DNA from: an uncultured Bacteroidales bacterium
GTDB lineage: Bacteria; Bacteroidota; Bacteroidia; Bacteroidales; JAGOPY01
Assembly (NCBI GenBank): GCA_963701785.1
Contig: CAVPBC010000002.1
Location: 1,365,093 to 1,429,092 of the forward strand
DNA length: 64,000 bases
Reading direction: 5' to 3'
The notes beneath the pieces were generated by a model. That model had not been told where the DNA came from. It saw nothing but the letters and a program-made list of their open reading frames with translations, and did not search any database. The translations under genes and the position numbers were made by a program. Numbering within the stretch: position 1 is the first letter of the stretch; each line of letters starts with the position of its first letter. This document shows positions 479 to 49,783 of the stretch, piece by piece.

Positions 479-1608
479 TCACCGGGTCATCATTTTTCCC
501 ATGGCCATCAGGTGAACTATGTTGAATCCTGTATCCAGCAGTAAAATATCAGCATCATAACCTTCGCGGATATATCCTTTGCCGGGTAATTTCAAGATGT
601 CGGCCGGATTTGATGTAACTACCTGCAAGGCTTGTTCCAGCGGGACTCCATCTGCCAGGACAGCATCTTTGACTTCTCTCAGGTTTGAAGAAGGAAGTCC
701 CATTTCAATCTTTATCAGTTTCCCGGTCTCAGGATCAAAACCCGGCAGGGAGCCGCAGGCATCGGAGGTAAAGGTAATATGGGCCAGGGGCACGCCGCCT
801 TCCAGGAGCAGTTTTAATGCGGTAGAGGGTTTTATTTCTTCATCAGGATAATAGGGATAAGAACTGGTTGTGATATCGACATAGCCTTTCTTCCCATATT
901 CCAGGGCATCCTTAAAGATATAATCGTTACGGTTGCAATGGGTCGGCAGGAACTGCCTGTATCCCATTTCGCTATTGGCAACCACATCATGGATCGGCCT
1001 GAAAGGGTCACGGGCATCGCCCATATGCATATTGACAATTCCGGCCTTCCCGCCGATCATCCCGGCCACGCGTGCATGGGCCGCAATCCTTGTCAATTCT
1101 GCGATCGAGGGCACGGAAGAACGATGGTCGGAGATGGCAACTTCACCCACCCCGATGACTTCTTCAAAGAGGGCAATATCTTTCATGATATCGCCGGTGA
1201 TGGAGGGAGGAGGGACCTGGTAGGCGCCGGTGTACATCCATGCCGACACCCCCTGGGCACGAAGCGTTTTCACCTTCATCAGCACACTTTCACGGTCCGG
1301 GTTATCCCGTCGGTTCCCAGACAGCCGATCACTGTAGTAACGCCGGCTTCGAGCATCATGCTGAGCTGGAGTTCGGGCATCCTGCTTATGGGGCCGCCTT
1401 CTCCGCCGCCACCCGTAATGTGAACATGAGAGTCGATAAGCCCGGGCACAAGCCAGAGCCCGGTGCAGTCGACCGTTTGCACTTCCATGCCTCCGGGAGG
1501 ATCAATATGATCCGCAATGGCTAAAATACTTTTTCCGCCGGTGAGAACATCTTTATTGCCAAGGTGTTGCGGGCTGTATACCTGTGCATTCTTAAAAAGT
1601 GTCATCAT
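479..1608 (-). pseudogene. iadA: isoaspartyl dipeptidase (amidohydrolase superfamily), split by one frame disruption at ~1279-1285
   Basis: ORF 1279-1608 (GLIDSHVHITGGGGEGG, HxH metal site) and ORF 479-1285 (VGEVAISDHRSS ... ITFTSDA) read as the N- and C-halves of one ~377-aa IadA-like protein. The junction lies in a GTGTG run. Confidence 0.85.
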
Positions 1609-1715
1609 GGTTCCTGGTTTTGTTCAGCAAAATTGGGGAAAAAAGTAATGCCAGTAATGTTTGTTCACCCTTATTTCTTACTTTCGTTTTACAAAATAAG
1701 CAGCACTTAAAAAGT

Positions 1716-3716
1716 ATGAATGATATAATTACCTTAAAAAGGGTTTTATTACACAGGTTGTTATTTCTTTTATGCTTCTGTGGATTTACTGCAGCATACG
1801 CTCAACCCGGCCGCCTGCTGTTAGTGGGAGGCGGCGCTGAAAAAAACGGCGTATCAAGCTGGAGCACACCGGCTTACCGCTGGGCTGGTGAAGGAAAAAG
1901 AGTGGCCATTATCGGTACCTCAACCGGAAGCCTTGCTCCTTATTTCATGCAGCAATGCGGCGCGGCCTGGGCAAAGGAATTTGCCATTGCCAGCCATGAC
2001 AGTGCCGACAGCCAGCTTACTTACGATACGCTGGTCACTTATGATGTAATCTTTTTCAGGGGCGGCGACCAGTATGACTACTACGATTTATACCGCGATA
2101 CAAAACTCCAGGATGCAGTAGAATATTTATACAGCCAGGGAGGTACAATCTGCGGCACTTCGGCAGGTATGTCCATCCTTTCTTCAATAGTTTACACGGC
2201 AGAAAACGGATCAGCTTACCCGGATGAATGTATCGAGGATCCAAACAACCAGTATGTAACCCTTGCCAATGATTTCATGGACTTTGTCCCGGGATTTGTT
2301 TTTGATACCCATTTTGCGAGAACGCGGCCGATTTGGCCGGCTGGTCGGATTTCTTGCCAATTACAGCCTGAACCAGGGGCAGGCCATTACCGGCTTAGGG
2401 ATGGATGACCTGACCTGCATGACCGTGGATGAGAATGGGCTGGGCACTGTTTACGGCACAGGTTGTGCCAATATCTATATGGCCGGCAGTAATTATTCGC
2501 TAAATGGCACCAAACTGCTGGCCGATACCGTGCATGTTATCCAGCTTTTGCACGGATGCACCTATGATTTCGCAACCGGCCAGGCTGGATTTGCAAGCCT
2601 GGACATGCAGATAAACACCTCCGGGCAGGAAGAATCCGGTAATTATACCGTACTGGCCAGCGGCAGCAATTTACTTGCCATATAACCAGGATATGCTGAA
2701 CGACCTGGTGAACAATACAGGGACTCCATCTGCGGAAATACTTATTATTTTCGGGTGACCAGGCCCTGGCAAACACTTATAAAACCAGGCTGCTTGAATT
2801 GGGTGCTTCTCAGGTGCATATCGTCTTACCGGACCCGCAATCGGGTAGCGATCACTGAGCTGGGCAACCTCATTACCCAGGCAACTAAAATACTGTTCCT
2901 GAAGAACAGCTTTCCGGTATTTTCCGGATTTCTGGAAACCTCCGATGGAGATTTGCTTCAGCAAAGAGTTAAAAACGACGGAATGATTACCGCTTTTGTT
3001 GGTGAAGATGCGCGGCTTGCCGGGAAGATTGTCGTGGAGAATTATCTCACGGAATATGCCTCCTATTATGCCGAGCTCACTTTTGGAAAAGGGCTTTCAT
3101 TGCTCCGGCACACCGTTTTAATGCCCGACACCTATCTGAACAGCGACATATATGAGAACACGGCAACGGCAGTCCCTTACGTCATGGCCAGGGATACGCT
3201 GAAATACGGCATCTGGCTCACCAACCACAATTACATGAAATTCACCCCGGTTGATGGTAAAACCACCCTTACAGGCTATGGGACAGCCCCGGTTATGGTA
3301 ATTACCAATGCGGGCAGCCTGGCCGGTTTTTCGAGCCATACGGCCACAGGAAATACCAGCTGTTGAACCCCGGATGGTTGCTGGTTTTGAGCATTTACAA
3401 CTTGTCGCTGACCGACTTACACTTCGCCTTACGTGATGGGAATGGCGCAACCATCCGGGTATAAATACCAACGATGATGAAATTCCAGTTTCAATTTCAC
3501 CAAACCCGGTTCATAACGAGCTTACATTAATGTGGAATTGCGATGAATATTAGCTGGGAAATCATCAGCCTTCAGGGCAACATACTTATGCAAGGCAAAG
3601 CCTGCAACGAGCCTGAACATGTCGATGTTTCCACGCTCAAACCCGGCATCTATATCATTAAACTGAAGAATAAACAAAACAGTGAAATAACCGCTAAAAA
3701 ATTTATAAAGAACTAA
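1716..3716 (+). pseudogene. secreted peptidase S51 (cyanophycinase-like) with T9SS C-terminal sorting domain; at least 5 frame disruptions
   Basis: ATG 1716 with signal peptide LLFLLCFCGFTAAYAQ. Motifs LLLVGGGAEKNG, FFRGGDQYDY, ICGTSAGMSIL (Ser nucleophile), and DTHFA/ERGRFGRL joined across an extra base near 2325. Pieces 1599-2408, 2263-2685, 2755-3366. The tail 3500-3716 reads SPNPVHNELTL...GIYIIKLKN...KKFIKN (T9SS CTD). Confidence 0.75.
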
Positions 3717-3718
3717 AT

Positions 3719-4995
3719 ATGACAAAAAGAAAAGTACTTTTTATTTTAGCAGTCTTAATTCTCTTTTTTATTCCAGGTATTAAGTCCCGGTCGCAGGGAA
3801 ACCTCGTGATTGCCGGGGGAGGGCTGGAAGATGACAATGCCAGTGTTTATGACCAGCTGATAGCGCTGGCCGGGGGGGCCGAAAAGGCTACTTTTGCCGT
3901 TATCCCTTCTGCCAGTGGTGTATCGGTGCAATCTTATACAAGTTTCCGAAACATATTAATTTCCTATGGAATAAAGCCGGAGCATATCTACCTGATCAAC
4001 ATTGCCATGGTTGATGACGACAGTACAACGGATGTGAATGAGGCGGAATGGAGCAACAATGGCAATGATCCTCAGTTAGCCGGTATTGTCAGGTCGTGTT
4101 CGGCTGTCTGGTTTACAGGTGGCGATCAGACGCGCACGATAAAAACGCTGGTCATGCCTGATGGCAGTAAAACCCCCGTGCTTGAAGCGGTCTGGGAGGT
4201 CTATCAATTCAGGTGGCGTAATCGGAGGATCAAGCGCCGGTGCCGCGATCATGAGTGAAGCCATGATCGGGGGCGGCAACAGCCTTGCAGCACTGAAGCA
4301 CGGCATCATTAAAGATTACCAGGGAGATGATTTTCCCGAAGGAGATGGCGTGCTGATGTCGGAAGGACTGGGCTTTTTCCCCCTGGGAATTGTTGACCAG
4401 CATTTTGAACAACGGGCACGTATCGGGCGGCTTGCGGTGGCCCTTATGAATGAAAAACCCGGGTTTAACTTGGGCTTTGGCGTTGATGAAAATACCGCAC
4501 TCATTTACCTGGGCAGTCAGAACCTGGTGAAAGTCGCCGGCGCCGGCAGGGTTACCATAATCGATGCCGCAAATGCCAGTCTGTCTTACGTCCAGGGTTT
4601 ACCGGCGATCGAAAACCTTACAGTAAGCCTCCTCGAAGAAGGTGACTCTTTCGATGGCATCACGGGACAAATAGTCCCGTCTGCAGGGAAAAGACCTACA
4701 CGGGGAAATGAATACTACAATATTGAGAATCCGGGCCAGGCTGGGGTTTTATCGGCCAATTCCACCAGCTTCAGCGATCTGGCCACCATCAGCCTTATCG
4801 ATAACAAAGGAGCTGATATGGTAAGTAATATCAGTTTTTCAGATAAGGAATCCGGATTTATGGTGACTTTATACAAAACCCCTGAAAGTGAAGGTTTTTA
4901 TACTGATCAAGCCGGACGATGAAGATCATTATACCGTGACGAAAATAAGGATGGATATTGCACCCGTGCAGGTGACCATATCACCTTTGAAATAA
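3719..4995 (+). pseudogene. cyanophycinase-like peptidase S51 with signal peptide; 2 frame disruptions (~4205, ~4915)
   Basis: MTKRKVLFILAVLILFFIPG signal. Motifs LVIAGGGLEDDN, VWFTGGDQTR, VIGGSSAGAAIMSE, VDQHFEQRARIGRL. Pieces 3719-4258 and 4161-4922, plus a short tail EDHYTVTKIRMDIAPVQVTISPLK to TAA 4993-4995. Confidence 0.8.
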
Positions 4996-5019
4996 TTACA
5001 AAAACCAAATAATAAGCTT

Positions 5020-7937
5020 ATGAAAAAATTTACGCTTTTATTTTTCATTTTTCTTTTTTCGTTTTTCACTGTTCATTTAAGTATGGCCCAGGAAATGCCA
5101 ATTACCGGTAAAGTCATTTCGGCAGAGGATCAGCAGCCGATCCCCGGGGTTACTGTAAAGATCAGGGGCACATCGACCGGCACTATTTCCGGTCTTGATG
5201 GGAATTACACCATCAATGCCCCTTCAAACGGTGTACTGGTATTTTCATTCGTGGGTATGGAAACCCAGGAACTGGAAATCAACGGGCGCCGGGAAATAAA
5301 CGTGAAACTGGAGGAAGCCAGAATCGACCTTGGGGAAGTGGTGGTCATGGGTTACAGCACTGCCAGCAAAAAACTGATCTCCGGCTCATTCGGTGTGGTC
5401 AAGGAAGAAGAGATGAAGTCAATCCCAATGCGGACTGTAAACGGGGTTTTGCAGGGTAAAACCGCCGGGGTGGTCATCATGCAGAATTCCGGGACACCCG
5501 GGGCACAGAACACGATCAGGATAAGGGGAGGCAGTTCCATCAATGCCAATAACCAGCCGCTTATCGTAGTCGACGGTATACCGGTAATTACCGGAGCTTA
5601 TGGCCAGATCGGTTATTCAGGCCAGGAAATTGATGCTATGTCTGACATCAATCCCAATGATATTGAGCAAATTACTGTGTCTAAAAGATGGCTCAGCAAC
5701 AGCTATTTACGGTGCAAGGGCCTCGAACGGCGTCATCCTGATCACAACCAAAAAAGGAAGTTTGCAGCAAACCAACGTGAACCTGAACACTTCCTTCGGC
5801 TGGCAGGTCCTTCCGCAGGAACGCCTGATCGAAATGATGAATGCTCAGCAATGGAATGAATATAAAGGCACTGATGTCCAGGGTATTGACACCGACTGGA
5901 TGGATGAAATACTCCAGGTTGCACCAACTTCAAATACGGAACTTTCTGTAAGCAGCGGAAACGATAAAACCCGGATGTATATTTCAGGAACTTATTACAA
6001 CCAGGAGGGGGTTGTTAAATCCACTGACTACGACCGCTATTCCGGCAGGTTGAGTGTGGATCATAAACTGCTTAAAAACCTGACCATTGGTGGTGGTGTA
6101 TCCATGACCTATTCTAAAAATAAGCGTGTTGAAGGGGACCAGACACTTTTCGGCCCCCTGCCCAATGCTATGTCGCTCCCTGCCATTTTTCCCGTTTATA
6201 ATGAAGATGGGACATATAATGAAGATGGGCCTTACGCTAACCCTGTGGCCATATGCAATGAAACCGTCAATGAAGCTTACACCAACCGTACCAATGGCAA
6301 CGTTTTCCTGGAATATAAATTTCTTAACGGATTTATTTTCACCACCAAATGGAGTGCAGATATATATAATCTGCGTGAGCATGAATATGACCCGATTACG
6401 GTCAGGCAGGGTGAGAAATACAACGGACTCGGCATTGAAGGCACCAGCTATGTCAGCAACCTGGTCAGCAATAATGTATTGCAATATATAAAAACCGTTA
6501 AAGAAAAGCATAACCTTGAAGCCCTGGCCGGATTCAGTTTCGAAAAATATGCCAGCCGCTATACCTATATTGAGGCGATCGATTTCCCGAATGAACAGCT
6601 GCAGTACATCGAATCAGCAAGCACCATCAGGGCGGCGTCAGCCTCGGCGGTCAACAGTGCCATGAATTCATTCTTCGGCCAGTTCAAGTACAATTATCTT
6701 TACAAATATATCTATCACCCTCACAGCCCGTGCCGACGGTTCGTCGAAATTCGGCGAGAACAACAAGTATGGCTTTTTCCCTGCAGGTTCATTTGCATGG
6801 CGCTTATCCGAGGAATCTTTCATGGAAAATGCCGGTAAAGTTGATGATCTGAAAATCAGGATAAGTGCCGGGCTTACCGGTAATGACGGTATCCCCAACT
6901 TTGCCTCGCTTGGATTGTACCAGGGCGGATACGACTATGAAGGCGGTTCGGGAATCGCTCCCACGCAATTGCCAAACCCGGACCTGAAATGGGAAACCAC
7001 CATGCAGACAGGATTTGGAATAGATCTGGCCATGTTTAATAACAGGATATCCTTTACCGGTGATATATATTATAATAAAACGAGGGATCTGTTGTTTTCC
7101 AGGCCTTTGCCTCCTTCAACAGGTTATTATTACATCTATGAGAATGTTGGCACCCTCGAAAATAAGGGGATTGAACTGGCCCTGACAACTGAAAATTTAA
7201 TAAAAGCTTTTAAATGGAATACGTCAATCGTTTTTTCCGCTAACCGCAACAAGGTGCTGGAACTTTATGAAGGCCAGCCTATTGCTGACCAGGGCCGGGG
7301 TGGTAACTGGGTGATGGAAGGGGAACCGACCGGCATCTTTTATAATTACAGGTGCCTTGGTGTCGATCCGACAACCGGTGATCTTGTTTATGAAGATATA
7401 AATAACGATGGGTTGATCAATTCAGAAGACTGGACCAAGATCGGCAATCCTAACCCGGATTTCACCATGGGACTGACGAATAATTTCAGCTGGAAAAACT
7501 TTGATCTATCCATCTTTCTTCATTTCGTTGCCGGCAACGACGTATTCAACGGCTCTATGATTTACCTCGAATCGGGAACGGGAGATGATAACCAGACCAC
7601 CGACATGATCAGGAGATGGAAGCAACCCGGTGATATTACCGATATGCCAAGGGTGGGTGATTCATACAAGTCGTCGAGGTTTATCGAAAACGGTTCATTT
7701 TGCAGGATCAAAAATGTAACCTTCGGTTATAATTTCCCTAAAGAACTGATCTCGAAAATCAAAATGAAAACCCTCAGGATTTTTGTGATCGGCCAGAACC
7801 TTTATACGTTCACCTCTTATTCTGGTATGGACCCTGAAGTTAATTACTATGCCAATGATAATATCATTCTTGGCACCGACTTCTTTACCTATCCCCAGTC
7901 GCGATCCTTCCTTTTCGGTTTAAACATTGGTTTCTAA
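5020..7937 (+). pseudogene. susC: SusC/RagA-type TonB-dependent outer-membrane transporter; 2 frame disruptions
   Basis: Pieces 5020-5859, 5600-6838, 6822-7937. Signal peptide; CarbopepD_reg-like ITGKVISAEDQQPIPGVTVKIRGTSTGTISGLDGNYTI; plug motifs LQGKTAGV, IRIRGGSS, SATAIYGARASNGVILITTKKG; barrel ends SFLFGLNIGF. Confidence 0.9.
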
Positions 7938-7956
7938 TAATAAATACACGAAAAAT

Positions 7957-9313
7957 ATGAAAAAGCTAATCTATATAACCATCGCCTTTTCAGTCCTTTT
8001 ATTATCCTGTACAAAAATGCTCGATATCGAACCGACTGATGCCATTTCCTCAGATGAAGCGATCAAAGACAAGGCCGGCGTCGATAAAGCAATTGCCGGT
8101 TCTTATGACGCCCTCCAGTATGCCGGGATGTATGGCCGCAACAGGGTGATCTTAGGTGACCTGGCCGCCGACAACCTGGTCTGGACCGGAACCACTTATG
8201 ATTATTATGAAATTGACAATAATGATGTCGCCATTGAAAACGGGATCATCGACGCCATGTGGTCAACATCCTATGACGGGATCAACAGGGTGAACAACGT
8301 CCTTGCTGCACTGCCCGGCATTGGTGACCTGACTGACGATGAACGCAATAAATATGAAGGAGAGGCCTTATTTATGAGGGCCCTGTTTCATTTTAACCTG
8401 CTGCTTTATTTCGGGGGAGTGCCCATTGTCACCGCACCCACACTTAATGTAGATGAAGTCGACAGGCCCCGGAATACTGCTGAATGAAATGTATGACCAG
8501 ATCATTTCAGATCTTAAATCTGCTGAATTAAAGCTGCCATTTCCGGCAGATATGCCGGCAGGGAGTTTTGGAAGGGCGAATTCTTTCAGTGCCTCCGCCC
8601 TCCTGGCCAGGGTTTATCTCACACGTTACCATGCTGAAAACAACAACCAGTATGCAGAGGCAGCTGCAACCAAAGCTGATTATGTCATAAATTCAGGAGC
8701 ATTTTCATTGCTAAGCGATTATGCATTCCTTTACGAAGATGCCGGCAGTGAAAGCATATTCCAGGTCGTATTCAGCGTCCAGGACAGGAACGTGATTGCC
8801 CAGTATTTCTTTCCCAGGAGCCTGACCGGGCGGTACGAAGTTGCCCCTTCAGAATCGCTGATCCAGAGCTATGAGGTCGCTGATTCACTGAGGATAAGTC
8901 AGCAACAATTGCATATGATACAGAGGGAAAGCCATATGGGTATAAATACCAGGATATTGCCGAAGGCACTGATGCCATACTTGTCATCAGGCTTGCTGAA
9001 ATGTACCTTATCAAAGCCGAAGCGCTGGCTTATACAAACGGCGATATTGCCACGATCCAGGATAATATCAACATGATCCGCTCCAGGGCCGGCCTTGAGC
9101 CAACAACTGCCGACTACCTAGATTGAACTCAAACTGGCAATTGAAAATGAGCGCCGGCATGAATTTGCTTTTGAAGGCCACCGCTGGTTCGACCTGGTCA
9201 GAACAAAACGGGCGACAGGTTTACTGGGAATAGATGAAGATTATACCCTTTTCCCTATTCCATTGAGCGAAATGACTACAAATAAAAAAATGGAACAAAA
9301 TCCCGGTTATTGA
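7957..9313 (+). pseudogene. susD: SusD/RagB-family nutrient-binding outer-membrane lipoprotein; at least 3 frame disruptions
   Basis: MKKLIYITIAFSVLLLSC lipobox immediately after susC. Pieces 7927-8487 and 8453-9076, plus unlisted frames reading VIRLAEMYLIKAEALAY and ENERRHEFAFEGHRWFDLVR...FPIPLSEM...NPGY to TGA 9311-9313. Confidence 0.85.
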
Positions 9314-9331
9314 TTTTTAAACTGATAAAAG

Positions 9332-10535: not shown

Positions 10536-10549
10536 TCGTTGGACTACAA

Positions 10550-10578
10550 AAAAAGGCTGCTCTTCCGGCAGCCTTTTT
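10550..10578. terminator. bidirectional rho-independent-type terminator between convergent genes
   Basis: AAAAAGGCTGC-tcttccg-GCAGCCTTTTT: 6-bp GC stem extended by an A/T run on both sides. Lies 15 nt after the stop at 10535 and 70 nt after the minus-strand stop at 10648. Confidence 0.55.
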
Positions 10579-10647
10579 GCTCTTATTATGACTTGATAAT
10601 CTATCTGACCACGAACATTTTATTTGACTGAACCTGTCCGTTACACT

Positions 10648-37813: not shown

Positions 37814-37821
37814 TCGGGTTT

Positions 37822-39581: not shown

Positions 39582-39584
39582 GGC

Positions 39585-39896
39585 CTATTCCTGTTTTTTC
39601 TTTTTCCTGAACATTTCGAGCATCCGGTCAGTCACGACAAATCCGCCGACCACATTCAGCGTTCCGAGTATCACGGCAATAAAACCGAGTATGAGCGACA
39701 GGGTACTTTCGGCATGCCCCATCACAATGATGGCACCGATGATGACCACACCGTGTATGGCGTTGCTCCCCGACATGAGGGGGGTGTGCAGTACCGCAGG
39801 CACATGCGAGATAACTTCAATCCCAAGGAATATGGACAGGAGGATGATAAAGATCATGTCTTTATATTCCAGGAAAAATTTTAACACATCTTCCAT
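39585..39896 (-). CDS. pntAB: NAD(P) transhydrogenase subunit alpha part 2 (membrane)
   Basis: 103 aa, 3-4 TM helices (LHTPLMSGSNAIHGVVIIGAII), between pntAA and pntB with 3-11 nt spacers. Confidence 0.88.
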   Translation of the reverse strand: MEDVLKFFLEYKDMIFIILLSIFLGIEVISHVPAVLHTPLMSGSNAIHGVVIIGAIIVMGHAESTLSLILGFIAVILGTLNVVGGFVVTDRMLEMFRKKKKQE

Positions 39897-39907
39897 AATT
39901 TTTCGCG

Positions 39908-41035
39908 TTATTGAATGATAACTGATTTGACTCTTTCGTGAACGATCTCCTTATTGTGGGTGACAGCGGTTCCTTTCACGATATCATCTTCCCAGTTGAG
40001 GTTCATGCCTCCTTCCGGCGTGATAATGAGCCTGAGGAAGTTGATGACATTTTTACCGAACATGCGGCTGGCATCGGTTGGAATATCGGACGGGAATGAT
40101 GAATTGCCTATGATTTTAACCCCGTTGTGCACGATCGTTTCACCATTTTTAGTAACCTCGCAGTTGCCCCCTGAAGAAGCTGCCAGGTCGATGATCACCG
40201 AGCCCGGCGCCATGGCTTCCACGGTTTCCTTTTTGATAAGCAGTGGGGCGCGCTTGCCCGGTATCTGCGCCGTGCAGATGATCACGTCGCTTTTAACTGC
40301 CTGGTTATGCACGGCCTGGGCCTGTCGCTGTTTGAACTCCTCCGACTGCTCAACCGCATATCCGCCGGCAGACTTGTCGTCGATAGCCCCTTCCACATCC
40401 ACGAATTTCCCTCCCAGTCCGACAACTTCTTCCTTTACGGCCGACCTCACGTCAAAGACATATACCACGGCCCCGAGTTTGCGGGCGGTGGCGACAGCCT
40501 GGAGCCCTGCAACGCCAGCCCCGAGGATGAGCATACTGGCCGGCTTGATGGTGCCTGCGGCAGTCATGAACATTGGGAAGAACTTCGGCAGGGTATTGGC
40601 TGCGGTGAGAACAGCCTTATACCCCGCTGCCGTTGCCTGCGACGAAAGAATATCCATAGCCTGTGCACGGGTGGTGCGTGGGATGACATCGAGGCTGAAA
40701 CTGGTGATATTCCTTGCAGCCAGCTCCTTTACAAGCTCACCGTTGAAAAAGGGGTTAAGAACAGCTATCAGCACCTGGCTTTCCTTAAGCAGATTGAGTT
40801 CTTCTTTACCGGGCGGGTTTATCTGTAAAACCAGGTCGGATGAAGCCATGACCTTTGCCCTGGATTCGATCCTGGCCCCGGCCTTCTCATAGTCCGTGTC
40901 GGATGCAAACGAAAATTCTCCGGCACCGTTTTCAACGATTACGGTAACATTCATCTTTACCAGGGCGGCGACACCTTCAGGCAGCAGGGCCACCCGGTTC
41001 TCACCGGTATTTTCTTTGAGCAAACCAATTGTCAT
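39908..41035 (-). CDS. pntAA: NAD(P) transhydrogenase subunit alpha part 1 (NAD(H)-binding dI)
   Basis: MTIGLLKENTGENRVALLPEG from the ATG at complement of 41033-41035 (the ORF track begins at an upstream TTG, 41068). LILGAGVAGLQAVATARKLGAVV Rossmann motif. Confidence 0.9.
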   Translation of the reverse strand: MTIGLLKENTGENRVALLPEGVAALVKMNVTVIVENGAGEFSFASDTDYEKAGARIESRAKVMASSDLVLQINPPGKEELNLLKESQVLIAVLNPFFNGELVKELAARNITSFSLDVIPRTTRAQAMDILSSQATAAGYKAVLTAANTLPKFFPMFMTAAGTIKPASMLILGAGVAGLQAVATARKLGAVVYVFDVRSAVKEEVVGLGGKFVDVEGAIDDKSAGGYAVEQSEEFKQRQAQAVHNQAVKSDVIICTAQIPGKRAPLLIKKETVEAMAPGSVIIDLAASSGGNCEVTKNGETIVHNGVKIIGNSSFPSDIPTDASRMFGKNVINFLRLIITPEGGMNLNWEDDIVKGTAVTHNKEIVHERVKSVIIQ

Positions 41036-41305
41036 GGTAGCAGGTTTAAAGGTTAATAACGAAGGCAAATTTAAAATAATTAAAAGAATTCCATATAAAT
41101 TGTCGGTTTAGCTTCGGCAATATTATTAAATTCATCAAAAATATTTAACAACATGCAATTAAGTAGAGGAAGTATCAAAAGTTTTTTCCACGCAAAGCAC
41201 GCGAAATAATAAATGGAAGAACGCAAATTATTTAATTGGGAGACACCATATTACCCTTTATTATTATGATTGTAATTTTACAATGATTATTAAATCGAAA
41301 ATATA

Positions 41306-41638
41306 ATGGAATGGATCGAAAAACTGGATGGCAATGTGATTGTTTGTGATGCGGAAGGAATTATTATTTACATGAATGAAACCGCGTTCAGGAATTATGC
41401 AAAAGATGGGGGTAAAAGCCTTATTGGACGGAATTTGATGGATTGCCACAACGAGGATTCACGTCGAAAAATCCTCGAAATCATGACGACTCACCAGAAG
41501 AATGTTTACACGATTGAAAAGCGGGGTAAGAAAAAGATAATTTACCAGGCTCCCTGGATGGATGGAGATCTGTTTAAAGGAATCATTGAATTATCCCTGG
41601 AGATCCCATTTGAAATGCCGCATTATAAGAGGGATTGA
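41306..41638 (+). CDS. small stand-alone PAS-domain protein
   Basis: 110 aa. VIVCDAEGIIIYMNETAFRNYAKDGG...LIGRNLMDCH pattern of a PAS fold. Confidence 0.6.
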   Translation: MEWIEKLDGNVIVCDAEGIIIYMNETAFRNYAKDGGKSLIGRNLMDCHNEDSRRKILEIMTTHQKNVYTIEKRGKKKIIYQAPWMDGDLFKGIIELSLEIPFEMPHYKRD

Positions 41639-41655
41639 ATTTTTCTTTAAACTTA

Positions 41656-42363
41656 ATGGCAAAAAAGAAAATTGTGCGCATCTCCTTTTCTTTGTTTTCT
41701 TTCAGGCTGCTCATGCTTTCAGTTATCATGGCCTGGGCAGTTAACGTCAGTGGTCAGGCTAAAAACCTAGCATTTGGAGGCGGGGTAGGGTACAATATTA
41801 CGCCTATTTTGAAGCTCGATTATTATACCTGGTATCGTTATGAAGCAAATGGCAATTTCACCCCAACAATTACCTTGAGATATGGAAATAAGGTTTCCGG
41901 TGTGTTTAAAGCATCTTACATTCGAAACGCCTTTGAACAAACATTTTTTAGCCAATACGGCGGAACCTCCACAGACAGGCTCGAAGCGAATATCCATCAA
42001 ATCTATTGTGATCTTTTGTTTGAGCATGCTCCTCTTGGCTCCAGGGGTTTCTTCTATTACCTGGGGCCCGGTTTCGGCATTCCGGTCAAAGTTGAGATAA
42101 CTGAGGAATACTGGAGAGGGGAATGGGGCCCGTACCCTTCAGAGCACACTTACAAAGAATCTGTTGTACCTGCTGAGTTTAATTTATGTATCCAGGGAGT
42201 TATTGGTTTAGGCGGATATATTCCAATTAAAGAAAAAAACCTGATCAGCGTGGAATGCAACTTCAGGATTGGATTAAACAAGGTCCTGGTAAATGTGGAT
42301 AATTACGAAAAGGCCAGGATGGTTGCCATCCAGTTCATTCTGGGCTATTTAAGGCGTTTTTAG
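41656..42363 (+). CDS. outer-membrane beta-barrel-like protein, paralogue 2
   Basis: ATG 41656, MAKKKIVRISFSLFSFRLLMLSVIMAWAVNVSGQ. Colinear with 33915-34607. Ends ILGYLRRF. Confidence 0.6.
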   Translation: MAKKKIVRISFSLFSFRLLMLSVIMAWAVNVSGQAKNLAFGGGVGYNITPILKLDYYTWYRYEANGNFTPTITLRYGNKVSGVFKASYIRNAFEQTFFSQYGGTSTDRLEANIHQIYCDLLFEHAPLGSRGFFYYLGPGFGIPVKVEITEEYWRGEWGPYPSEHTYKESVVPAEFNLCIQGVIGLGGYIPIKEKNLISVECNFRIGLNKVLVNVDNYEKARMVAIQFILGYLRRF

Positions 42364-42552
42364 GATGATATTGGCTGGTAATTGCACGGCTACCAATACG
42401 GATAATAATTTCCCGGCCATTGCCCCTATACCTTTTCTTTCAGTGCCTTATACTGACTGTTGATTGACATATTGATCAACAGTCAGTATATTTGTGTAAG
42501 CCTTCATCAGGTTAATGGTTAATGATCATTCAATTCCTGTGAGGTTGTTAGG

Positions 42553-44084
42553 ATGTTTGCAGAAAAGGATCATATTAGACCTTTTATGAACCTCAATCCA
42601 ATAGCCGGGGCCTTTTGGATAATAATTCCAGCTGTCATGCTGTTTCTGTCAAGCCCCGGCAGGCTGGCTGGCCAGTGCACCGACACCGCTGACTTTTCCG
42701 GATGGTTTGAGGCAAATGGCAAGGACCACTGGCTGTTGAATTCGCCTCGTAAGGTAACAAACATTGTCGAGATTATACCGGCCAGGCCCTCTTTCTTCGT
42801 GAGCGACCAGCAATTGATCAATGTGAGGTTTTCTTTTGACGTCGAATCCCAGAATAGTCTGGATAATGACTTTATTGGATTTGTTGTCGGCTATCGAAAT
42901 CCTTATTCTGACGAATCCAATGAGTACGATTTTATTTTGTTTGACTGGAAAGCCAAATCCGGAAATGGGTATTCCCATTATGCTGAAGAGGGTTTCAGCC
43001 TGGCTGCGTTTCACGGCTATATTGCCCAGGATGCAATACATGATTATTTCTGGGGGCATAACAGTTCTGCCTCAAATTCAGCATATGAGCTTCTCTCATA
43101 CAGCTATGGGGATGAAAAAGGCTGGGATGTCATTCAAAAATATCATTTTGAGGTATTTTATATGGAAACATCCATAAAAATACTCATTGATGATAAACTA
43201 ATTTTTGATGTCGAAAGGTGCAATCAGCCCGGGAGGATCGGATTTTATACCTATTCCCAGTACGGAGTGGTTTTCAGCAATTTTTATTCCCGGAGCTCGG
43301 CCGACATCTTTGCCTCCCCAACCACTATTTGTGCAGGGGATACTGTCTTTGCAAGCCTGATGGATCCTTACTGCACCGCGTATGATCCTGCCATTGAAAG
43401 CTGGCAATGGAACTGGGGCGACGGGGAAACCTCCTTCAATAAACCCGTTGACTTCCACATTTACCAGGCTGCCGGAAATTATTTCATGGAACTTGTAGCC
43501 CAATTTTCCAGCAGTTGCAGCGATACTATAGGTACCCTGATAACCGTGCAAAACCAGCCGGAATTCGACCTTGGCCCGGATACTTCTGTACATGCCGGTG
43601 AATCGATTACCCTGACGCCGGGCGATTATCATCCAGGCTGGACTTACCATTGGTCAACAGGCAGCCGGGAGCCTCAAATCACCCTGAATGACCTTGACAG
43701 GGATACGACAATCAGGCCTTCTGGTGATAAGTTCCCTTTGCCAGGATTATGATGAGATCACTATTAAAGTAATCCATGATACCATTCCGAAATATAATAT
43801 CTGGGTACCGAATGCCTTTTCACCGGACGGTGATGGCCAGAATGATTTTTTCCAGCCGGTAACGACCGAGGTATTGCCAGATAAGTATAACCTTTACATT
43901 TATGACAGATGGGGCACGGAAATTTTCCGAGAGTTCCGAGCCTGGTAAAGGTTGGGACGGAACCTATAAAGGGCAGCCATGCCAGGGTGATGTTTATGGT
44001 TACCTGATCAGTTATCAGCCCGCCGATCAGTTACAAACTAAAGAGGTAATCATGTTAAAAGGGTGCTTTTTATTGCTAAAGTGA
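42553..44084 (+). pseudogene. TSP-C/LamG-like lectin domain + PKD domain protein with type-B T9SS (gliding-motility CHU_C) C-terminal domain; 2 frame disruptions
   Basis: Pieces 42553-43752, 43688-43948, 43902-44084. DNDFIGFVVGY...YDFILFDWK; WQWNWGDGETS (PKD); NAFSPDGDGQNDFF...IYDRWGTEIF...WDGTYKGQP...GDVYGYLISY. Confidence 0.7.
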
Positions 44085-44102
44085 ACTTTAAATTCCCACC
44101 CG

Positions 44103-44144
44103 CCTCTGTTTCCTCTGTTTATCCTCTGATACCTCTGCGGTTAA
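44103..44144. repeat. solo right arm of the TTAACCACAGAG palindromic element family
   Basis: CCTCTGTTTCCTCTGTTTATCCTCTGATACCTCTGCGGTTAA matches 55972-56013 at 41 of 42 nt. The following GACTTTTGTGAC also matches the flank at ~56026-56037. Confidence 0.8.
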
Positions 44145-44235
44145 TAATAAATGGGACTTTTGTGACATCCTCACTAAAATAATAGAGGCTAAATCCTGGC
44201 AATTTCCTTAGTTTTACAATGTAAATACAGGAAAA

Positions 44236-46586
44236 ATGACCAGGAAAATGTCCTATTATTTCAGTAAGCATTTCTTAAAAGCTTTATTCATCATCCTTTT
44301 TCTTGCCCTGTTTACCCGGGCTGAATCACAGGAATGCAGTTACACCCTGAGTATGCACGATAGCTACGGGGATGGCTGGAATGGTGGTTATCTTTCGGTT
44401 TTAGTCAATGATGTCCCGGTGGGTAATTTCTATGCCACCAATTTTGGAAGTACAGGGACCTTCCAGGTGAACACCGGAGATCTGGTAGAGCTTATCTACA
44501 CCCCCGGCGATTGGGAAAATGAAAATTCCTACCAGTTATTCGATCCGGTGTGGAATTTCCTTTTCGGTGACGGGCCTTCCCCTCAAACAGGCAGTGTTTT
44601 TTCATCCACAGGCGATTGCGATGGATCGATGCTTGCCGGGCAATCATCCCTGTACCGCGATACAAATTGATACGGGATGCATTGTTTCCGATAATACCGG
44701 CTTTCCGGGCTCCGGTTTAAACCCGGGTTGTGCTGAATACCAGGGCGCTGACATCTGGTTTGCTATGCAGGTGCCCCCTTCGGGTAATGTCAGTTTTGTT
44801 ACGGACAATGGTGATCTGACCGACACTGGATTAGCCGCCTGGACCGGCAGTACGTGCACAGATATTCATTACCTGGGCTGTGATGATGACGGAGGGAATG
44901 GTTATTACTCCTTCCTTTCCTTATATGACCTTACCCCGGAAAATATGCTGTATATACAGGTCTGGGGCTATGGTGGGGCAACCGGTACATTCGAGCTCTG
45001 TGCCCACGACCTGGGAACAGTGACCCTTGATAGTACTGAGCTGCCGATTGTCATGATCAACACATTGGGACAAACTATTGTGGAGAATACAAAGATTGAT
45101 GCCCTCATGGACATGAAATACAATGGCCCTGGCACCATAACTTATGTATCTGACAGCTCCAATGTATACAGCGGCAATATCGGCATTGAAATACGGGGAG
45201 CCACTTCGGCAGGTTATCCCCAGCATCCTTACAGCATTGAAACCCGCACCGCTGAAGGCGAAAATAACAACGTGCCCCTTCTGGGGATGCCTGAGGAAAA
45301 TGATTGGTTGCTGTTATCCAATTACAATGACCGGTCACTCATCAGGAATACGCTGGCATACAAGCTGTTCGAAGTAATGGGCAATTACAGTGTGCGGACA
45401 AGTTTATGCGAAGTGATGATCGACAGCGCTTATAAAGGCATTTACGTTTTCTGTGAAAAAATAAAACAGGATAACGGCAGGGTCGACATCGCCAAATTAA
45501 CCCCGGCCGATACTGCAGGGGATGACCTTACCGGCGGATATATCCTTGAACAGAATTACTGGAACGAATACAATAGTTTCCTTTCGAATTATTCCCCTAT
45601 CGACCATCCGGATTTTGATGTGCATTTTGTGTATTATTACCCCAAGCCGGATTCCATTGTTGGCGTTCAGAAATCATATATCGCATCCTTTGTGGATAGT
45701 CTTGAAACGGCGCTGTACAGCCCTGGGTTTGCAGATCCGGTCACAGGTTACAGGAAGTATCTCGATGTAAAATCATTCATTGATTATTTCCTGGTGAATG
45801 AATTATCACGCAACAACGATGGCTTTAAAAAGAGTGTTTATTTCAATAAGGATAAGAATTCAAACGATAGCAAGCTGAAAGCAGGACCTGTGTGGGATTT
45901 CGACTGGGCGTGGAAAAACCTGTATGGCTGTTCACATTTTTGAAAACCTGGATGGCTCAGGATGGGCGCACCATATCAATGATTGCCCCACTGACAATTA
46001 CTCCTGCGGCTGGTATATCCGGTTATTGCAGGACAGCACATTTGCCGATGAACTCAGGTGCGCCTACGACAATTACAGGCTGACCATTTTAGATACTGCC
46101 TATATTTTTTCCTACATCGACAGCGTGGAGAACCTGGTGCAAAATGCCCAGGCAAGGCATTTCCAGAAATGGCCCATCCTGGGCATCAGCGGTCCTGCAC
46201 CCGAGGTTGGAAATGTGGCCACAACCTACAGCGGAGAGCTTGATACCCTCAAAGCCTGGATAAAATTACGTTTACAATGGCTGGATGAAAATATACCGGG
46301 GCTCTGTCCGAATGTCTCCATTAATGACGATCCACGGCAAGTTGAAAACACTTTAAATTTCTACCCAAATCCCGGTAACGGTAATTTTCATTTTGAAGGA
46401 TATATTGAAAGCGACACCCCGATACAAATGTATGTTTACGATCTGACCGGCAGAATGATCGATCGCGTTTCCCTTCAGCCAGGCAGCTTGCGATTCGATT
46501 ACCGGTTGAACAGGAAAGGGTTGTTCTTATTCACCATTACCAACAATAACGGGCTCCTGCAGTCTGGAAAATTGATCGTACAGTAG
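44236..46586 (+). pseudogene. CotH-family (atypical kinase fold) protein with T9SS C-terminal sorting domain; 2 frame disruptions
   Basis: Pieces 44236-44670, 44519-45943, 45924-46586. LPIVMINT, IGIEIRGATSAGYPQHPYSIE, NDRSLIRNTLAYKLF, KGIYVFCEKIKQD, NNDGFKKSVYFNKD, GPVWDFDWAW. CTD LNFYPNPGNGNFHF. Confidence 0.75.
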
Positions 46587-46660
46587 CTGGAAACGTCAAC
46601 CATGCTAAATGACTTCATGGGCACCTATGTTATGGATCCGATGAACCAAAATGAGATTTT

Positions 46661-46668
46661 TATGTTTA
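46661..46668 (+). promoter_or_regulatory. possible Bacteroidota -7 promoter box (TATGTTTA; consensus TAnnTTTG)
   Basis: 28 nt upstream of ATG 46696. An identical octamer sits at the same spacing upstream of the paralogue at 54044, within a conserved GGATCCGATGAACCAAA...TATGTTTA leader. Confidence 0.3.
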
Positions 46669-46695
46669 ATGCCTACACTACTTAAAATATTATTT

Positions 46696-48493
46696 ATGAA
46701 AAAAGATTATTACTCTAAATCAAGCACCTTTAGATCCTTCATTTTCGGTATCATATTATTATTATCAATGACGATGTCCCTTCACGCCCAGACACTTACA
46801 GTTCAAACGCCAAACGGCGGCGAAGTTTGGACTTACGGACAAAGTGAAACAGTTACCTGGACCGGAACCGGCCTGGGCAGCCTGGTGTCGCTTGAATTTT
46901 CAGCGGATGGTGGCGCTACATGGTCCTTTATCGGCAATACTCCGTCGACTCCAACCGGCGGCTCTGTCCTGATCGGTGTTCCGGTATTGGCGAGCACCAA
47001 TGCATTCTTTAGGGTTACAAACCTTGAGGTCCCCGCTGCTTCGGATATCAGCGATGCACCATTTACGGTCATTGTGCCTCCGATCATCATTTATGAACCT
47101 TCTCCAGCATCTGCCATTTTTGCTGAAGCAGAAGTCTTTGTTAATTGGGGAACTACCGAAAATGGTATTACCCTTCTAAATGCTGAAATATCAATTGATA
47201 ATGGCGTGACCTATACGCCTGTTGCTCAGAACATCAATGCATTGTTTTATTATACATATATTGTGTTATCGGATACTCCATCTGATTCCTGTATCCTTAA
47301 GCTTTATAACGTGGATGATCCTACCGAGTATGGCCTGAGCCAGGTTTTTACAATAAGTCCTCTTCCTGTTTATAACCTGATTTCCCCGGCCGCCGGAGAA
47401 CTGGTAAATACCAACAGCCCTTACAGCATTACCTGGACCGTGGAGAATCCTTATAATGGATATGCTTATCTTGAATATTCCATTAATAACGGTCAGACCT
47501 GGGAAATCATCAATGGTGTTTTTTATCAGGGTAATACCGGAAGTTATGAATGGTACACACCAAATGTGGATTCAGATGAATGCCTCGTCAGGATCGGCGA
47601 TTCTTATTCATTAAACTCCCTGGATACCAGCGGGATGTTCTCGATATTTACGTTCCCTGAAACCCCGGTCTGCATGGTGTCGGTCGACAGCCTGACGAAT
47701 TACAATGTGGTTATATGGGAAAGGCCTGTTTCAGATATGATAGCCGATTTCCTGGTTTATAAAGAAACAGATGAATTTAATGTATATGAAGTGATCGATA
47801 CAGTAGGGTATGAGGAAATAACGATGGTCACCGACGCCGGTTCAAACCCGGCCATTAGGCCCTATCGATATAAAATCGGGTTCATTGATATCGAAAACAG
47901 GCTGTTCCCGTCAGGCGATTACCACCAGACCATTCACCTGACCATCAACCAGGGCGTGAACGATTCCTGGAACCTGATCTGGACGCCTTATACCGGGTTT
48001 GATTATCCTTCCTATAAGATCATGCGTAAAACAGATTCCGGCGATTATGAGCAGATCGCGACCGTTTCGGCAAGTTTTAGTTCCTATACCGACTTGAATG
48101 CGCCTCCCGGTGAAGTCTTCTATATGATAAAGATTGATGCACCCCGACGGCTGCAACCCGGCTATCCGCGATGGAGAATATGCCAGCGTATACTCCAATG
48201 TGGCAACAAACAGCATTGTTTCGGTTTTCGAAAACAAAGACCCGGACTTCACCATTTATCCCATCCCGGCTGATAAGCAACTCAATGTTTCATTCGGTGA
48301 AAACATTACCGGAAAGACCAGGCTGATCATCAGCGATCTGACGGGCAGGGTGGTTTATTCCGAAGATATCAATGACGTGCGTCCCGGACAGGTGCAAACG
48401 ATCAACAGCCTTGGCTTTAAAGAGGGGATGTACCTGCTGCAGTTAACCTCAGAAGGAAACAGTGCTACCAGAAAGATTGTGATAAAGCACTAG
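46696..48493 (+). pseudogene. Asp-box (SxDxGxTW) repeat / FN3-like T9SS cargo protein, paralogue 1; 1 frame disruption (extra T at ~48137)
   Basis: Pieces 46651-48273 and 48134-48493. SADGGATW, SIDNGVTY, SINNGQTW. AAGATTGATGCACCCCGACGGC versus AAGATTGAGCACCCTGACGGC in copy 3. CTD IYPIPADKQLNVSF. Confidence 0.8.
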
Positions 48494-48564
48494 CCGAGAC
48501 TAATTCACGGCTGCTGCACTGAACAAAACATGATTACTTTTGTTGTAAGTTCGAAATTGAGAAA

Positions 48565-49783
48565 ATGAAAAAGATAAAGTTACTTCTGGCCATTCTTCTG
48601 ATATCAAACATGGGGTTGAACGCCCAGATCAACCTTGTTGGTGCAGCATATAACCCGTCGACCGAAATGATCGATATTGTCAAATGGCAGGCGCTCGATT
48701 CGGGATCTGTAATCACCATTCCATCTATCCTTGAGGGATATTACTTCGGCTCATCAGCATTTGATGCATACAATGGAAATTATTACCTGACCGGGATCAC
48801 CGCCGATGATCAGGGCTTGTTTTCATTCAACACTCAAACAAATGAACAGGAACTGAGTGAATTCACTCTATTTTCGAATGTTTCGGAATTCGACATGAGC
48901 ACGGGCAAAATTTACGATCTCCGCCTTGACTCTACCGAATATATCAGTGTGAATGAATTTGATATTCTAACCGGAACTGACAGCCTGATCGGGGTGATCT
49001 ATGAGCCGGGAGCCAATGCAATTGTGGCTGACGCAATCGGTTTTAATTCCAATGATGGCATTATTTATTATGTGGGTTTTACTAATGAACCTGCAATATG
49101 CCTTTACGCTATCCCGGTAAGGGAAGAAGTTTTTTCTTTCAGCAGGACAACGCTTTTGCCAACCGCTCCTTATAATATTCTGACCGGCGTAAATTATGAT
49201 AATGTCAATGATAAGATATTTGCGTTAAATGCAACTTACGACAGCCTTTTCAATTATACCGGCAACGAAATCGTAGAGATAGATAAAGAGACCGGCGATA
49301 TTAATGTCCTGGCAGAATTGAATGAATTTACAGGATTCGTAGGCGGTTCTTCTTCTTTCGATCAGAATACCGGCAGTTTTCTGCTTTCGGGTATTGATAC
49401 CAGCAACCTGTTGCGCATGATCGTCTTCAACACCTACACAAACACCTATGAGACCGGGTTTGTCCCTGGCGTTTCCGAAATCGCTTGTGATAATACCATA
49501 TTTGCATTGAACAATTACATCATAACCTCAGTAACAGATAATGAAGAAATTGACTTCAGTGTCTCCCCAAATCCTGCCACCGACAGGCTTAGGGTTACTG
49601 TTAACGCTGCGTGAAGATGTCCTGGTGAGGATTTATTCGACGAATGGAAGCCTGGTGATCAGCAAAGAATTCTCACCAGGGGAAAATATTGAATTGTACC
49701 TGGATTTCCTGCCGTCAGGCGCATATCTTGTCAATGTTTTATCCGGCGGGATGAACGGTTCTAAAAAGATTCAGATACTTTAA
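48565..49783 (+). pseudogene. hypothetical secreted protein with T9SS C-terminal sorting domain; 1 frame disruption (~49600)
   Basis: Pieces 48565-49614 (signal MKKIKLLLAILLISNMGLNAQ; ...FSVSPNPATDRLRV) and 49541-49783 (VRIYSTNGSLV...GAYLVNVLSGGMNGSKKIQIL). Confidence 0.65.

Follow-up and report, generated by a model that had tools for sequence, protein, structure and literature searches.

Disrupted genes in three blocks of the window

The window analysed here (the whole 64,000-nucleotide stretch of DNA) belongs to a 2,890,125 bp contig, which NCBI and ENA list with no protein names, from a metagenome-derived Bacteroidales/Lentimicrobiaceae-like genome and contains 49 reading-frame lesions, comprising 47 indels and two in-frame stops, which fall into three bad blocks of 6–13 kb each. 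Bad block 1 (1290–14010) has 28 lesions at 2.1/kb (27 indels plus a TAG at 12415, with local densities ranging from 1.3 to 4.7/kb), and these affect an amidohydrolase, two S51-like peptidases, SusC, SusD, a PKD protein, a minus-strand T9SS protein and a 774-aa-type T9SS propeller protein. Bad block 2 (23700–30240) has 15 lesions, also at 2.1/kb (14 indels plus a TGA at 28728), located in an SdiA-regulated-like gene, an HD-like/PycTM gene, an ankyrin-metallophosphatase gene and a TPR regulator. Bad block 3 (43700–49610) has six lesions, all +1, at 0.85/kb in four genes for T9SS-sorted proteins (a PKD/CHU_C protein, a CotH protein, a 598-aa-family paralogue and the product of a gene ending at 49783). 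The bad blocks alternate with clean blocks 1 (14011–23699), 2 (30241–43699) and 3 (49611–64000), which have zero lesions.

Lesions were detected using a self-trained six-frame coding HMM, by following Pfam domains which continue across adjoining ORF pieces in different frames, and with a frameshift-aware protein-to-DNA aligner plus DNA alignments to related contigs. The HMM was usable in bad blocks 1 and 3 and almost blind in the low-GC block 2, and provides a lower bound only. The lesions of block 1 are based on frameshift-aware alignments, the HMM, Pfam pieces and ORF reading, those of block 2 on DNA alignments to the relatives L100 and L101, homologue alignments, Pfam and ORF reading, and those of block 3 on Pfam continuity, paralogue and homologue alignment, DNA alignment to the relative L084 and ORF reading. 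It should be noted that about 17 of the 49 are based solely on ORF junctions, Pfam matches and the reading of translations, with positions accurate to ~30 nt, and that some lesions are hidden from ORF junctions (a compensated -1/+1 pair at 12094/12126, and the +1 lesions at 25520 and 26858). The share of sequence in long ORFs separated neither bad from clean blocks nor long-read from short-read loci, and this measure was dropped.

The block pattern is confirmed as a real observation. The lesion-free stretches of 9,690, 13,460 and 14,390 nt sum to 37,540 nt, in which 28.7 lesions would be expected at the mean rate (Poisson P about 3e-13), and the observed gaps were reproduced by 0 of 200,000 random placements (in these the three largest gaps summed to ≤28,442 nt). 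A uniform error rate is incompatible with this, as had been argued in a preliminary description from counts of at least 25, 13 and 6 disruptions, for which we now find 28, 15 and 6; the three blocks described there remain after computational checking of the reading frames, which did not yield an even spread of lesions, though their starts are shifted, with the first real lesions near 1.29 kb in block 1 and 43.7 kb in block 3. At one border the lesion density drops from >2/kb to zero in ≤300 nt, a >100-fold change, and at another the break sits between two paralogues.

The stretches between and after the bad blocks had been described as free of disruptions, and comparisons by aligner, Pfam and contig agree in finding zero lesions there. 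Over some 14 kb of coding sequence from the clean blocks the aligner returned no events; the regions tested included 17312–19636 (tested against two homologues), 49793–51589, 54044–55840, 53331–53927 and thyA, as well as pntB, pntAB, pntAA, 41689–42357 and 33933–34604 in clean block 2 (here L084 proteins served as references for pntB/AB/AA and two 227-aa-type genes). Pfam domains were full-length in clean block 2 and in the remaining ORFs of clean block 3, and the 975-aa product of 34886–37813 in clean block 2 is on record under Logan, NCBI and ENA. An apparent +1 at 41048 was rejected because the gene as called in the relative is too long, the true pntAA start being the conserved MTIGLLKE, and candidate junctions at 33.85, 39.58 and 53.3 kb proved to be normal boundaries between genes.

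Individual lesions and their spectrum

Nearly every gene in the bad blocks is disrupted, susC and susD included, as had been recognised earlier, and the maximum found by homologue alignment was 10 lesions in one gene. In bad block 1, one extra base in SusC at 6714–6716 (+ strand), placed using five homologues and a DNA alignment to L003, converts YKYIFTLTARADG into a junk tail, and the frameshifted product (P0001) is present in the public record. An extra A at ~2325 (GCG-A-GAACGC) was read in the sequence, and the in-frame TAG at 12415–12417 (+) was read directly in a gene which aligns across the stop to a clean paralogue.

In bad block 2, the SdiA-regulated-like gene is missing one base at 23700 (+), where L100 has an extra G and an open frame. 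This is one of just three anchored deletions. The HD-like/PycTM gene is uninterrupted in L100 (392 aa) and L101, and has two extra bases at 25348–25349 (+; TG on the + strand and CA on the coding strand) and an extra C near its 5′ end at 25520 (+), all absent from both relatives; the preliminary description was right about a 2-nt lesion near 25350 and wrong in placing it at an HD motif, as the relatives read F-C-N-T-G-Y. The CDS at 25648–26751 is intact within the bad block, as had also been seen before, and an identical product is found in public records. In the ankyrin-metallophosphatase gene there are 8 insertions in 1.3 kb and the Pfam ankyrin repeats are spread over three frames; the insertions include an extra T in the signal-peptide region at 26858 (+), an extra T between ankyrin repeats at 27081 (+; ~27078 by five protein homologues) and an extra G in the ankyrin region at 27223 (+; ~27220 by protein homologues), all absent from L101. 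The in-frame TGA at 28728–28730 (+), read directly and with no homologue anchor, separates the signal-peptide part of the TPR regulator gene from its TPR part, and an extra A in an A-run was read at 29925.

In bad block 3, one extra base at 48137–48139 (+; ATTGA-T-GCAC) in the 598-aa-family T9SS gene was placed by clean paralogues in the window and five homologues, and the last lesion of the block is an extra C at 49610 (+; GCTG-C-GTG) which is absent from L084 in a 90% identical stretch. The lesions at 2325, 12415, 28728, 29925 and 48137 were all reported previously and seen again here.

Thirty indels could be anchored by homologues or the DNA of related assemblies, and these comprise 27 insertions (25 of one base and two of two bases) and three one-base deletions (binomial P = 8e-6 for the excess of insertions). 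The largest indel in the window is 2 nt, all 47 being of 1–2 nt, and these compare with two in-frame stops in about 25 kb. As in bad block 3 (6/6), the lesions of the ankyrin-metallophosphatase gene are all +1 (8/8). Six of 26 lesions lie ≤8 nt from a run of 4 or more, compared with 25% of random positions, and for runs of at least 5 the figures are 1/26 and 7.5%; a single indel of the 47 extends a base run (the A-run at 29925, from 5 to 6), and no recurrent slippery motif was found in the lesion contexts. The earlier view that the lesions are mostly a single extra base, often outside homopolymers, is in keeping with these figures.

Once corrected for frame, all of the genes tested were colinear end to end with intact homologues, with identities of up to 0.86–0.88, and none was truncated or lost even at 8–10 lesions in one gene. 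The third-position share of differences was 0.62–0.63 for lesioned genes compared at full length with L100 (a weak test at 90% identity), 0.58–0.72 for SusC/SusD compared with L003 (also a weak test) and 0.70 for the intact neighbour gene, and was only 0.42 and 0.49, respectively, when the HD-like/PycTM gene (5′ part) and the ankyrin-metallophosphatase gene (its beginning) were compared with L101 over short partial stretches. As a spectrum of errors the lesions do not look like natural mutation and resemble a sequencing or consensus process; insertion-only events of 1–2 nt, with hardly any nonsense changes and without larger deletions, are the opposite of natural gene decay.

Relatives and block borders

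The block 2 genes are uninterrupted in two contigs that were assembled independently, namely L100, a k141-named ENA contig which is 90.4% identical to the window, and L101, a Logan contig which is 90.6% identical, and the coding sequences differ in reading frame from those of the window at the lesion sites only. The coding-sequence lesions spanned by L100, L101 and L084 were absent in 7/7 cases (these relatives are 82–91% identical and not the same strain), which is the outcome of a comparison with orthologous loci that had been proposed in the preliminary description, and homologues were colinear in a single frame at every lesion compared. Intact copies in ~90% identical relatives may still leave room for recent mutations in the lineage of the window.

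Same-species contigs (L001, L097, L098 and L092/L096) cover clean block 1 only, where their identity to the window is 99.4–100% and 5.9 kb of alignment contain 0 gaps. Here L001 is 100% identical over 14310–15888, and L097, L098 and L092/L096 are 99.4–99.9% identical with 0 gaps over 18504–22798; those from other runs have 2–24 substitutions per 1.6–3.9 kb. A protein query joining 11 bad-block ORF pieces, used to seek same-species fragments, returned two irrelevant matches only. A PntB scan of the genome collection gave 80 loci, the best of which was 89% identical, with synteny confined to the pnt operon, and served only to place the organism among Bacteroidales/Lentimicrobiaceae-like MAGs; in the 180 kb JGI contig L088 synteny was limited to the query gene. 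Split genes are likewise seen in related MAG loci (L002, with SusC in two pieces, L085/L086 and L099).

The Logan contig L001 ends at 14310, at the edge of bad block 1, and L102 (92%) and L099 (82%) lose their homology to the window at 14310–14312, while synteny with L084–L086 is lost at 42366 and regained at 49536. Because these contig and synteny breaks fall at block borders, the bad segments seem to be strain-variable. We note that the end of L001 is weak evidence since its other end sits inside a clean block, and that the bad blocks need not all be variable islands: a low-GC region spans the left border of block 2 and extends into clean block 1, and the gene order of block 2 is common to L100 and L101. 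No repeats were found at the block borders that would account for them, and Rfam and tRNA scans gave no match.

Origin of the lesions

We are confident that the lesions are artefactual, whatever their exact cause, and they are very probably consensus errors in the deposited assembly and not mutations in the organism. The indels are very short and sit in genes which are otherwise full-length and conserved, as expected of an artefact. Segment-wise differences in consensus quality had been suggested from the outset, and this suggestion is supported by the lesion spectrum, the full-length corrected genes, the intact relatives, the gap-free same-species clean block and the abrupt change in lesion density at one border.

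In choosing among low coverage, unpolished segments and a mixed-strain consensus, we infer a low-depth consensus, to which we give roughly an even chance. The bad segments would be carried by part of the population only, and their consensus would have been built on very few reads, perhaps 2–3. A consensus step which keeps any base seen in one of a few reads would pass insertions and repair deletions, and graph consensus preferring the path of highest summed weight would act in this way at low depth, while steps in depth at read ends could give sharp block borders on a read-length scale and sub-blocks of 1 versus 4–6 lesions/kb. What commonly remains uncorrected in nanopore and HiFi consensus is homopolymer indels; insertions at random positions are not typical of it, and to account for them the above behaviour of the consensus step has to be assumed in addition. 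Long-read consensus indel and frameshift errors are known to depend on depth (PMC9262707). The lack of same-run contigs over bad-block genes was considered as evidence of low coverage and rejected, as clean-block genes are often missing too.

A mixed-strain (collapsed) consensus is possible and appreciably less probable. Here the reads of at least two co-occurring strains would have been merged, with misaligned neighbouring variants leaving extra bases and the clean blocks representing stretches in which the strains are near-identical, so that the lesions would still be artefacts with a cause other than low depth. Indels and seeming frameshifts can result when allelic variants are collapsed (PMC8445201), contig and synteny breaks coincide with block borders, and strain diversity is evident in the substitutions among same-species contigs. 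The well-resolved GA-T-G, T-A-T and G-C-G lesions can be read as two alternative bases side by side, but any single insertion can be read in this way and three cases prove nothing; moreover, in two of these cases the variant would fall at the second codon position, although most of the variation between real strains is synonymous, and the density of insertions in the ankyrin-metallophosphatase gene would demand very dense variation.

We consider a hybrid or patched assembly unlikely, in which clean blocks would be accurate short-read contigs or polished sequence and bad blocks gaps bridged by raw or lightly corrected long reads without short-read cover. The quality contrast is indeed sharp and near all-or-none, and one contig of run ERR11561443 matches the window at 100% identity and breaks off at 14310, on the edge of block 1. 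Logan also has three of the clean-block products, two of which, Pirin (L001) and a methyltransferase (L097), were traced to contigs of this run, whereas for the three bad-block products that were checked the records are from NCBI and ENA alone; four other clean-block products are also missing from those runs, however, and the contrast is not significant. Moreover, L097 is 2 substitutions from the window, and ERR11561443 is perhaps not the source. A rate of 1–6 indels/kb is also too low for raw noisy reads.

Genuine block-wise pseudogenisation, with a polysaccharide-utilisation locus, a low-GC island and a set of secreted proteins inactivated in this lineage, is very improbable, and had already been ranked behind differences in consensus quality. 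The lesions are present in the public record, the blocks hold accessory-type genes whose loss would be affordable, and the intact copies seen come only from ~90% identical relatives and not from the same strain. Against this stand the insertion bias, the small size of all events, the paucity of stops, the lack of truncated or lost genes and of a homopolymer link, codon-position patterns like those of the intact neighbour in full-length comparisons, and the abrupt borders, one of them between two paralogues. Bacterial decay is said, after work by Mira, Ochman and Moran in 2001, to be deletion-biased with a broad size range; we found neither such a bias nor nonsense with relaxed selection (the latter being a weak test at 90% identity). 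It is less credible still that the lesions are real and recent and result from a localised insertion-biased mutational process acting on three 6–13 kb tracts and sparing the DNA between them, for which error-prone synthesis during the repair or recombination of strain-variable segments might serve as an example. Programmed or reversible frameshifting at ribosomal sites or phase-variable repeats is refuted at all sites but one and can be dismissed, as only the lesion at 29925 lengthens a run while the remainder lie outside repeats with up to ten per gene, homologues are unshifted at the same positions and no slippery motif recurs.

Indel errors in long-read consensus, as Watson and Warr reportedly found in 2019, fragment gene calls. 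The lesions are of no biological weight, because the genes are most likely intact. In practice, however, annotation would turn about 25 kb of the 64 kb of the window into pseudogenes or into dozens of short proteins that do not exist; P0001 and P0123 already carry junk tails in public protein collections. Genome-wide quality scores would mask errors concentrated in accessory segments, and it is from these segments that niche traits (such as polysaccharide-utilisation loci, defence-like genes and secreted proteins) are inferred. The insertion-only, non-homopolymer block signature could be used to flag bad segments without reads.

Several known systems resemble the window in part. Phase-variable contingency loci likewise have one-base frame changes, and the genes concerned have surface or uptake functions (SusC/SusD-type loci, for example). 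Phase-variable sites are long repeats, usually one per gene, and slipped-strand change of this kind is not what we see in the window, where one indel in 47 extends a base run. Pseudogene-rich genomes, such as those of Mycobacterium leprae and recently host-restricted symbionts, likewise have many adjacent disrupted genes with several lesions each. Real decay brings deletions of many sizes, nonsense changes, raised amino-acid change, gene loss and a genome-wide spread, and none of these marks was seen in the window. Where allelic or strain variants are collapsed (Cosentino et al. 2021, PMC8445201), frameshifts arise only where the merged sequences differ and variation-free stretches are clean, so that borders would track variation as the contig and synteny breaks of the window suggest; that case differs in being a diploid eukaryote with phased evidence. 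Consensus errors in long-read genomes and metagenomes (Sereika et al. 2022, PMC9262707; Kastor, PMC12007338) are likewise single-base indels which split conserved genes, at rates depending on read depth and polishing, and are typical of MAGs with megabase contigs; they differ in being homopolymer indels found genome-wide, whereas those of the window are almost only non-repeat insertions in bounded blocks.

Confinement of frame lesions to three blocks

We counted 49 lesions (reading-frame indels and in-frame stops) in the window, with 28 in 1290–14010, 15 in 23700–30240 and six in 43700–49610 (bad blocks 1–3), which upholds the three-block confinement and the counts of the preliminary description (at least 25, at least 13, and six). 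The lesion-free stretches (clean blocks 1–3) measure 9.7, 13.5 and 14.4 kb, where 28.7 lesions would be expected at the mean rate, and three gaps of equal total size were found in 0 of 200,000 random placements; the computational frame check gave no even spread of lesions. Density inside the blocks is uneven and ranges from about 1 per kb to 4–6 per kb.

In the list of open reading frames (ORFs), same-strand ORFs are short and overlapping at 0.5–14.3, 23.5–30.3 and 42.5–49.8 kb and long in the rest, and a coding HMM covering six frames, with the window itself as training data, placed direct frame-to-frame switches in these three regions alone, giving only normal gene boundaries outside them. 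Neighbouring ORF pieces in different frames match consecutive portions of one Pfam domain, as seen for an amidohydrolase (profile positions 2–58, then 236–344), SusC (plug domain, then barrel) and CotH (positions 1–217, then 239–322), while ankyrin repeats are spread over three frames and sorting domains are separated from their parent proteins. A purpose-written frameshift-tolerant protein-to-DNA aligner, run with homologues or paralogues, identified two events each in an S51 peptidase (3701–4986) and SusC (5020–7934), three in SusD (7957–9310), one in a PKD protein (9329–10532), seven in an ankyrin-metallophosphatase gene (26808–28437), one in a T9SS gene (46696–48490), and nine plus the stop TAG 12415 in a propeller protein (11920–14276) aligned to its clean paralogue (17312–19636). 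The same aligner found no events in ~14 kb of clean-block genes, and an apparent event at 41048 was rejected as the relative's gene call was over-long. Lesions in genes beyond this set were called by manual reading of three-frame translations.

The window otherwise carries ordinary Bacteroidota genes, including a SusC/SusD locus with S51 peptidases, pntAB, thyA, an IS200-type transposase and Pirin, and many of its proteins have type IX secretion sorting domains. Within a species-representative genome collection, the best PntB match (89% identity) comes from uncultured Bacteroidales/Lentimicrobiaceae MAGs, and identity rises to 95% in a JGI metagenome relative. Three window products (P0001, P0123 and P0138) are all present in public protein records at NCBI and ENA, from one contig of 2,890,125 bp and with no protein names. 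P0001, a SusC piece, and P0123 end in frameshift-derived junk tails, with P0138 being the third recorded product; because frameshifted products are already on public record, the lesions are a property of the public sequence and not of the copy analysed.

We note several individual genes and elements. The 980-aa protein at 59796–62738 has a Peptidase_S74 (endosialidase chaperone) domain of the type present in phage tail fibres, and its N-terminus is similar to a PTL_trimer/YadA-head protein of L084, a JGI relative. Three T9SS-sorted paralogues of ~598 aa (46696–48490, 49793–51589 and 54044–55840) are mutually 69–77% identical and belong to a functionally unassigned family that occurs very frequently in Lentimicrobium-like MAGs (372 hits at E<=1e-10). 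Intergenic palindromic elements based on TTAACCACAGAG...CTCTGTGGTTAA follow secreted-protein genes at 37821–37933, 44103–44151 and 55909–56013, with copies kept in L084 and no match in Rfam. An intact IS200/IS605-type Y1 transposase (22717–23190, minus strand) lies immediately left of bad block 2, and the same-species JGI contig L092 terminates within it. Finally, a 72-nt segment at the ankyrin-metallophosphatase gene's 3' end (28356–28427) is repeated with 85% identity at 32311–32382, in the intergenic region after 30554–32209, where it may be the remnant of a second copy.

Lesion spectrum and intact copies in relatives

Thirty indels could be anchored using protein homologues or related-contig DNA, and these comprise 25 of +1, two of +2 and three of -1 (binomial P = 8e-6); every lesion of block 3 (six) and of the ankyrin-metallophosphatase gene (eight) is +1. 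The individual lesions cited in the preliminary description stand with small corrections, and one inserted base is seen in SusC (ATC-T[A]TC) and at 2325 (GCG[A]GAA), 25520 (TTCAG[C]TAAT), 48137 (ATTGA[T]GCAC) and 49610 (GCTG[C]GTG). There is no link to homopolymers, since a run of at least four lies no more than 8 nt away from 6/26 lesions compared to 25% of positions drawn at random from these blocks. Only two in-frame stops were found against 47 indels, none of which exceeds 2 nt, and no gene is truncated despite 8–10 lesions in single genes.

Orthologous loci, in relatives ~90% identical and not of the same species, were reached via the cluster of 25648–26751, the sole intact gene of the bad blocks. 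The flanking genes are intact in both L100 (a k141-named ENA contig, 90.4% identical over 23479–26857) and L101 (a Logan contig from a different run, 90.6% identical over 24913–27232), which are concordant throughout their overlap. Length differences in coding sequence are confined to lesion sites (-1 at 23700, +2 at 25348–49, and +1 at 25520, 26858, 27081 and 27223), and those remaining are intergenic, directly past the stop codon at 26749–26751. Here the window and L101 have different copy numbers of a short GAATGTT-type tandem repeat (26751–26775), which resembles natural length variation of non-coding DNA. The C inserted at 49610 is likewise absent from L084, where the surrounding stretch is 90% identical. 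Same-species contigs, from the data sets ERR11561443, SRR10466858 and JGI 3300004282, were found over clean block 1 only and align with 0 gaps: L001 (14310–15888, 100% identical), L097 (18504–21740, 99.94%), L098 (19288–20933, 99.88%) and L092/L096 (18858–22798, 99.39%).

The ~392-aa gene at 24364–25547 (minus strand) is intact in L100 and L101 and combines a strong C-terminal match to PycTM (Pycsar effector transmembrane domain; E = 3.5e-29) with a weak N-terminal one to the HD domain (E = 0.0025); no cyclase gene adjoins it. The two-nucleotide lesion reported near 25350 is confirmed at 25348–49, but L100 and L101 read F-C-N-T-G-Y where H-D is expected.

The gene-splitting type of error is, judging from sequence, widespread around the present lineage, since genes are split in related metagenome contigs too (L002 1345–4250, L085 4417–5099, L086 7621–9654, L099 9844–10466 and L102 ~256). 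The SusC of GCA_016708515.1 is split in two, Pirin is in three pieces in an ENA contig, and two contigs from a single JGI sample are distinguished by split genes.

Origin of the lesion blocks

We consider it very probable that the lesions are an assembly artefact that leaves a distinctive pattern rather than mutation in the organism, and the earlier reading of segment-wise consensus quality is supported by the insertion-dominated 1–2 nt spectrum, complete genes, intact copies in relatives and abrupt borders. The bad blocks may be segments that vary between strains, as their borders coincide with points where other assemblies stop or diverge. L001 terminates at 14310 and homology to the related contigs L102 (92% identical) and L099 (82% identical) ends at 14310–14312, a coincidence partly owed to the choice of query, with the next 119 nt of L102 unrelated to the window. 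The JGI relative ceases to be syntenic at 42366 and becomes so again at 49536, bracketing block 3. Block 2 fits this suggestion less well, as its left border falls within a low-GC region extending into clean sequence and its gene order is common to the window and relatives.

In a mixed population, strain-variable segments would have lower read coverage than the shared backbone, and where only two or three reads overlap, a consensus favouring the path of greatest summed support would retain single-read bases. Insertion errors would then persist and deletions be repaired, which would account for an insertion-only, context-free spectrum, and whole-number depth steps at read ends would produce sharp borders and sub-blocks differing in density. 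A similar picture would be expected of a mixed-strain consensus, which we regard as possible though improbable, and of hybrid gap-filling, which appears less probable again.

Genuine gene decay, ranked by the preliminary description as the less likely reading, is very improbable. Natural decay in bacteria produces indels of widely varying size together with nonsense mutations and amino-acid replacements, leads eventually to gene loss, and is reportedly biased towards deletion (Mira, Ochman and Moran in 2001), whereas here the spectrum is reversed and the genes are complete. In full-length comparisons with L100, differences are mostly at third codon positions in lesioned genes (0.62–0.63) much as in an intact neighbour (0.70), with lower shares in two short partial comparisons with L101 (0.42 and 0.49). 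Lesion density also drops from >2 per kb to zero in no more than 300 nt at 14.0–14.3 kb, and the 49.6–49.8 kb border separates two paralogues, one lesioned and the other perfect. Insertion bias, complete genes, mostly third-position differences and this abrupt drop thus argue for an artefact. Programmed frameshifting and phase variation failed their defining tests (homologue alignments and homopolymer context).

The lesion blocks are of little biological interest and of some use as a caution to annotators. Two ingredients of the proposed low-depth mechanism are supported by published analyses, in which the indel and frameshift errors of long-read consensus sequences vary with depth (PMC9262707) and the collapsing of variants produces indels and apparent frameshifts (PMC8445201).
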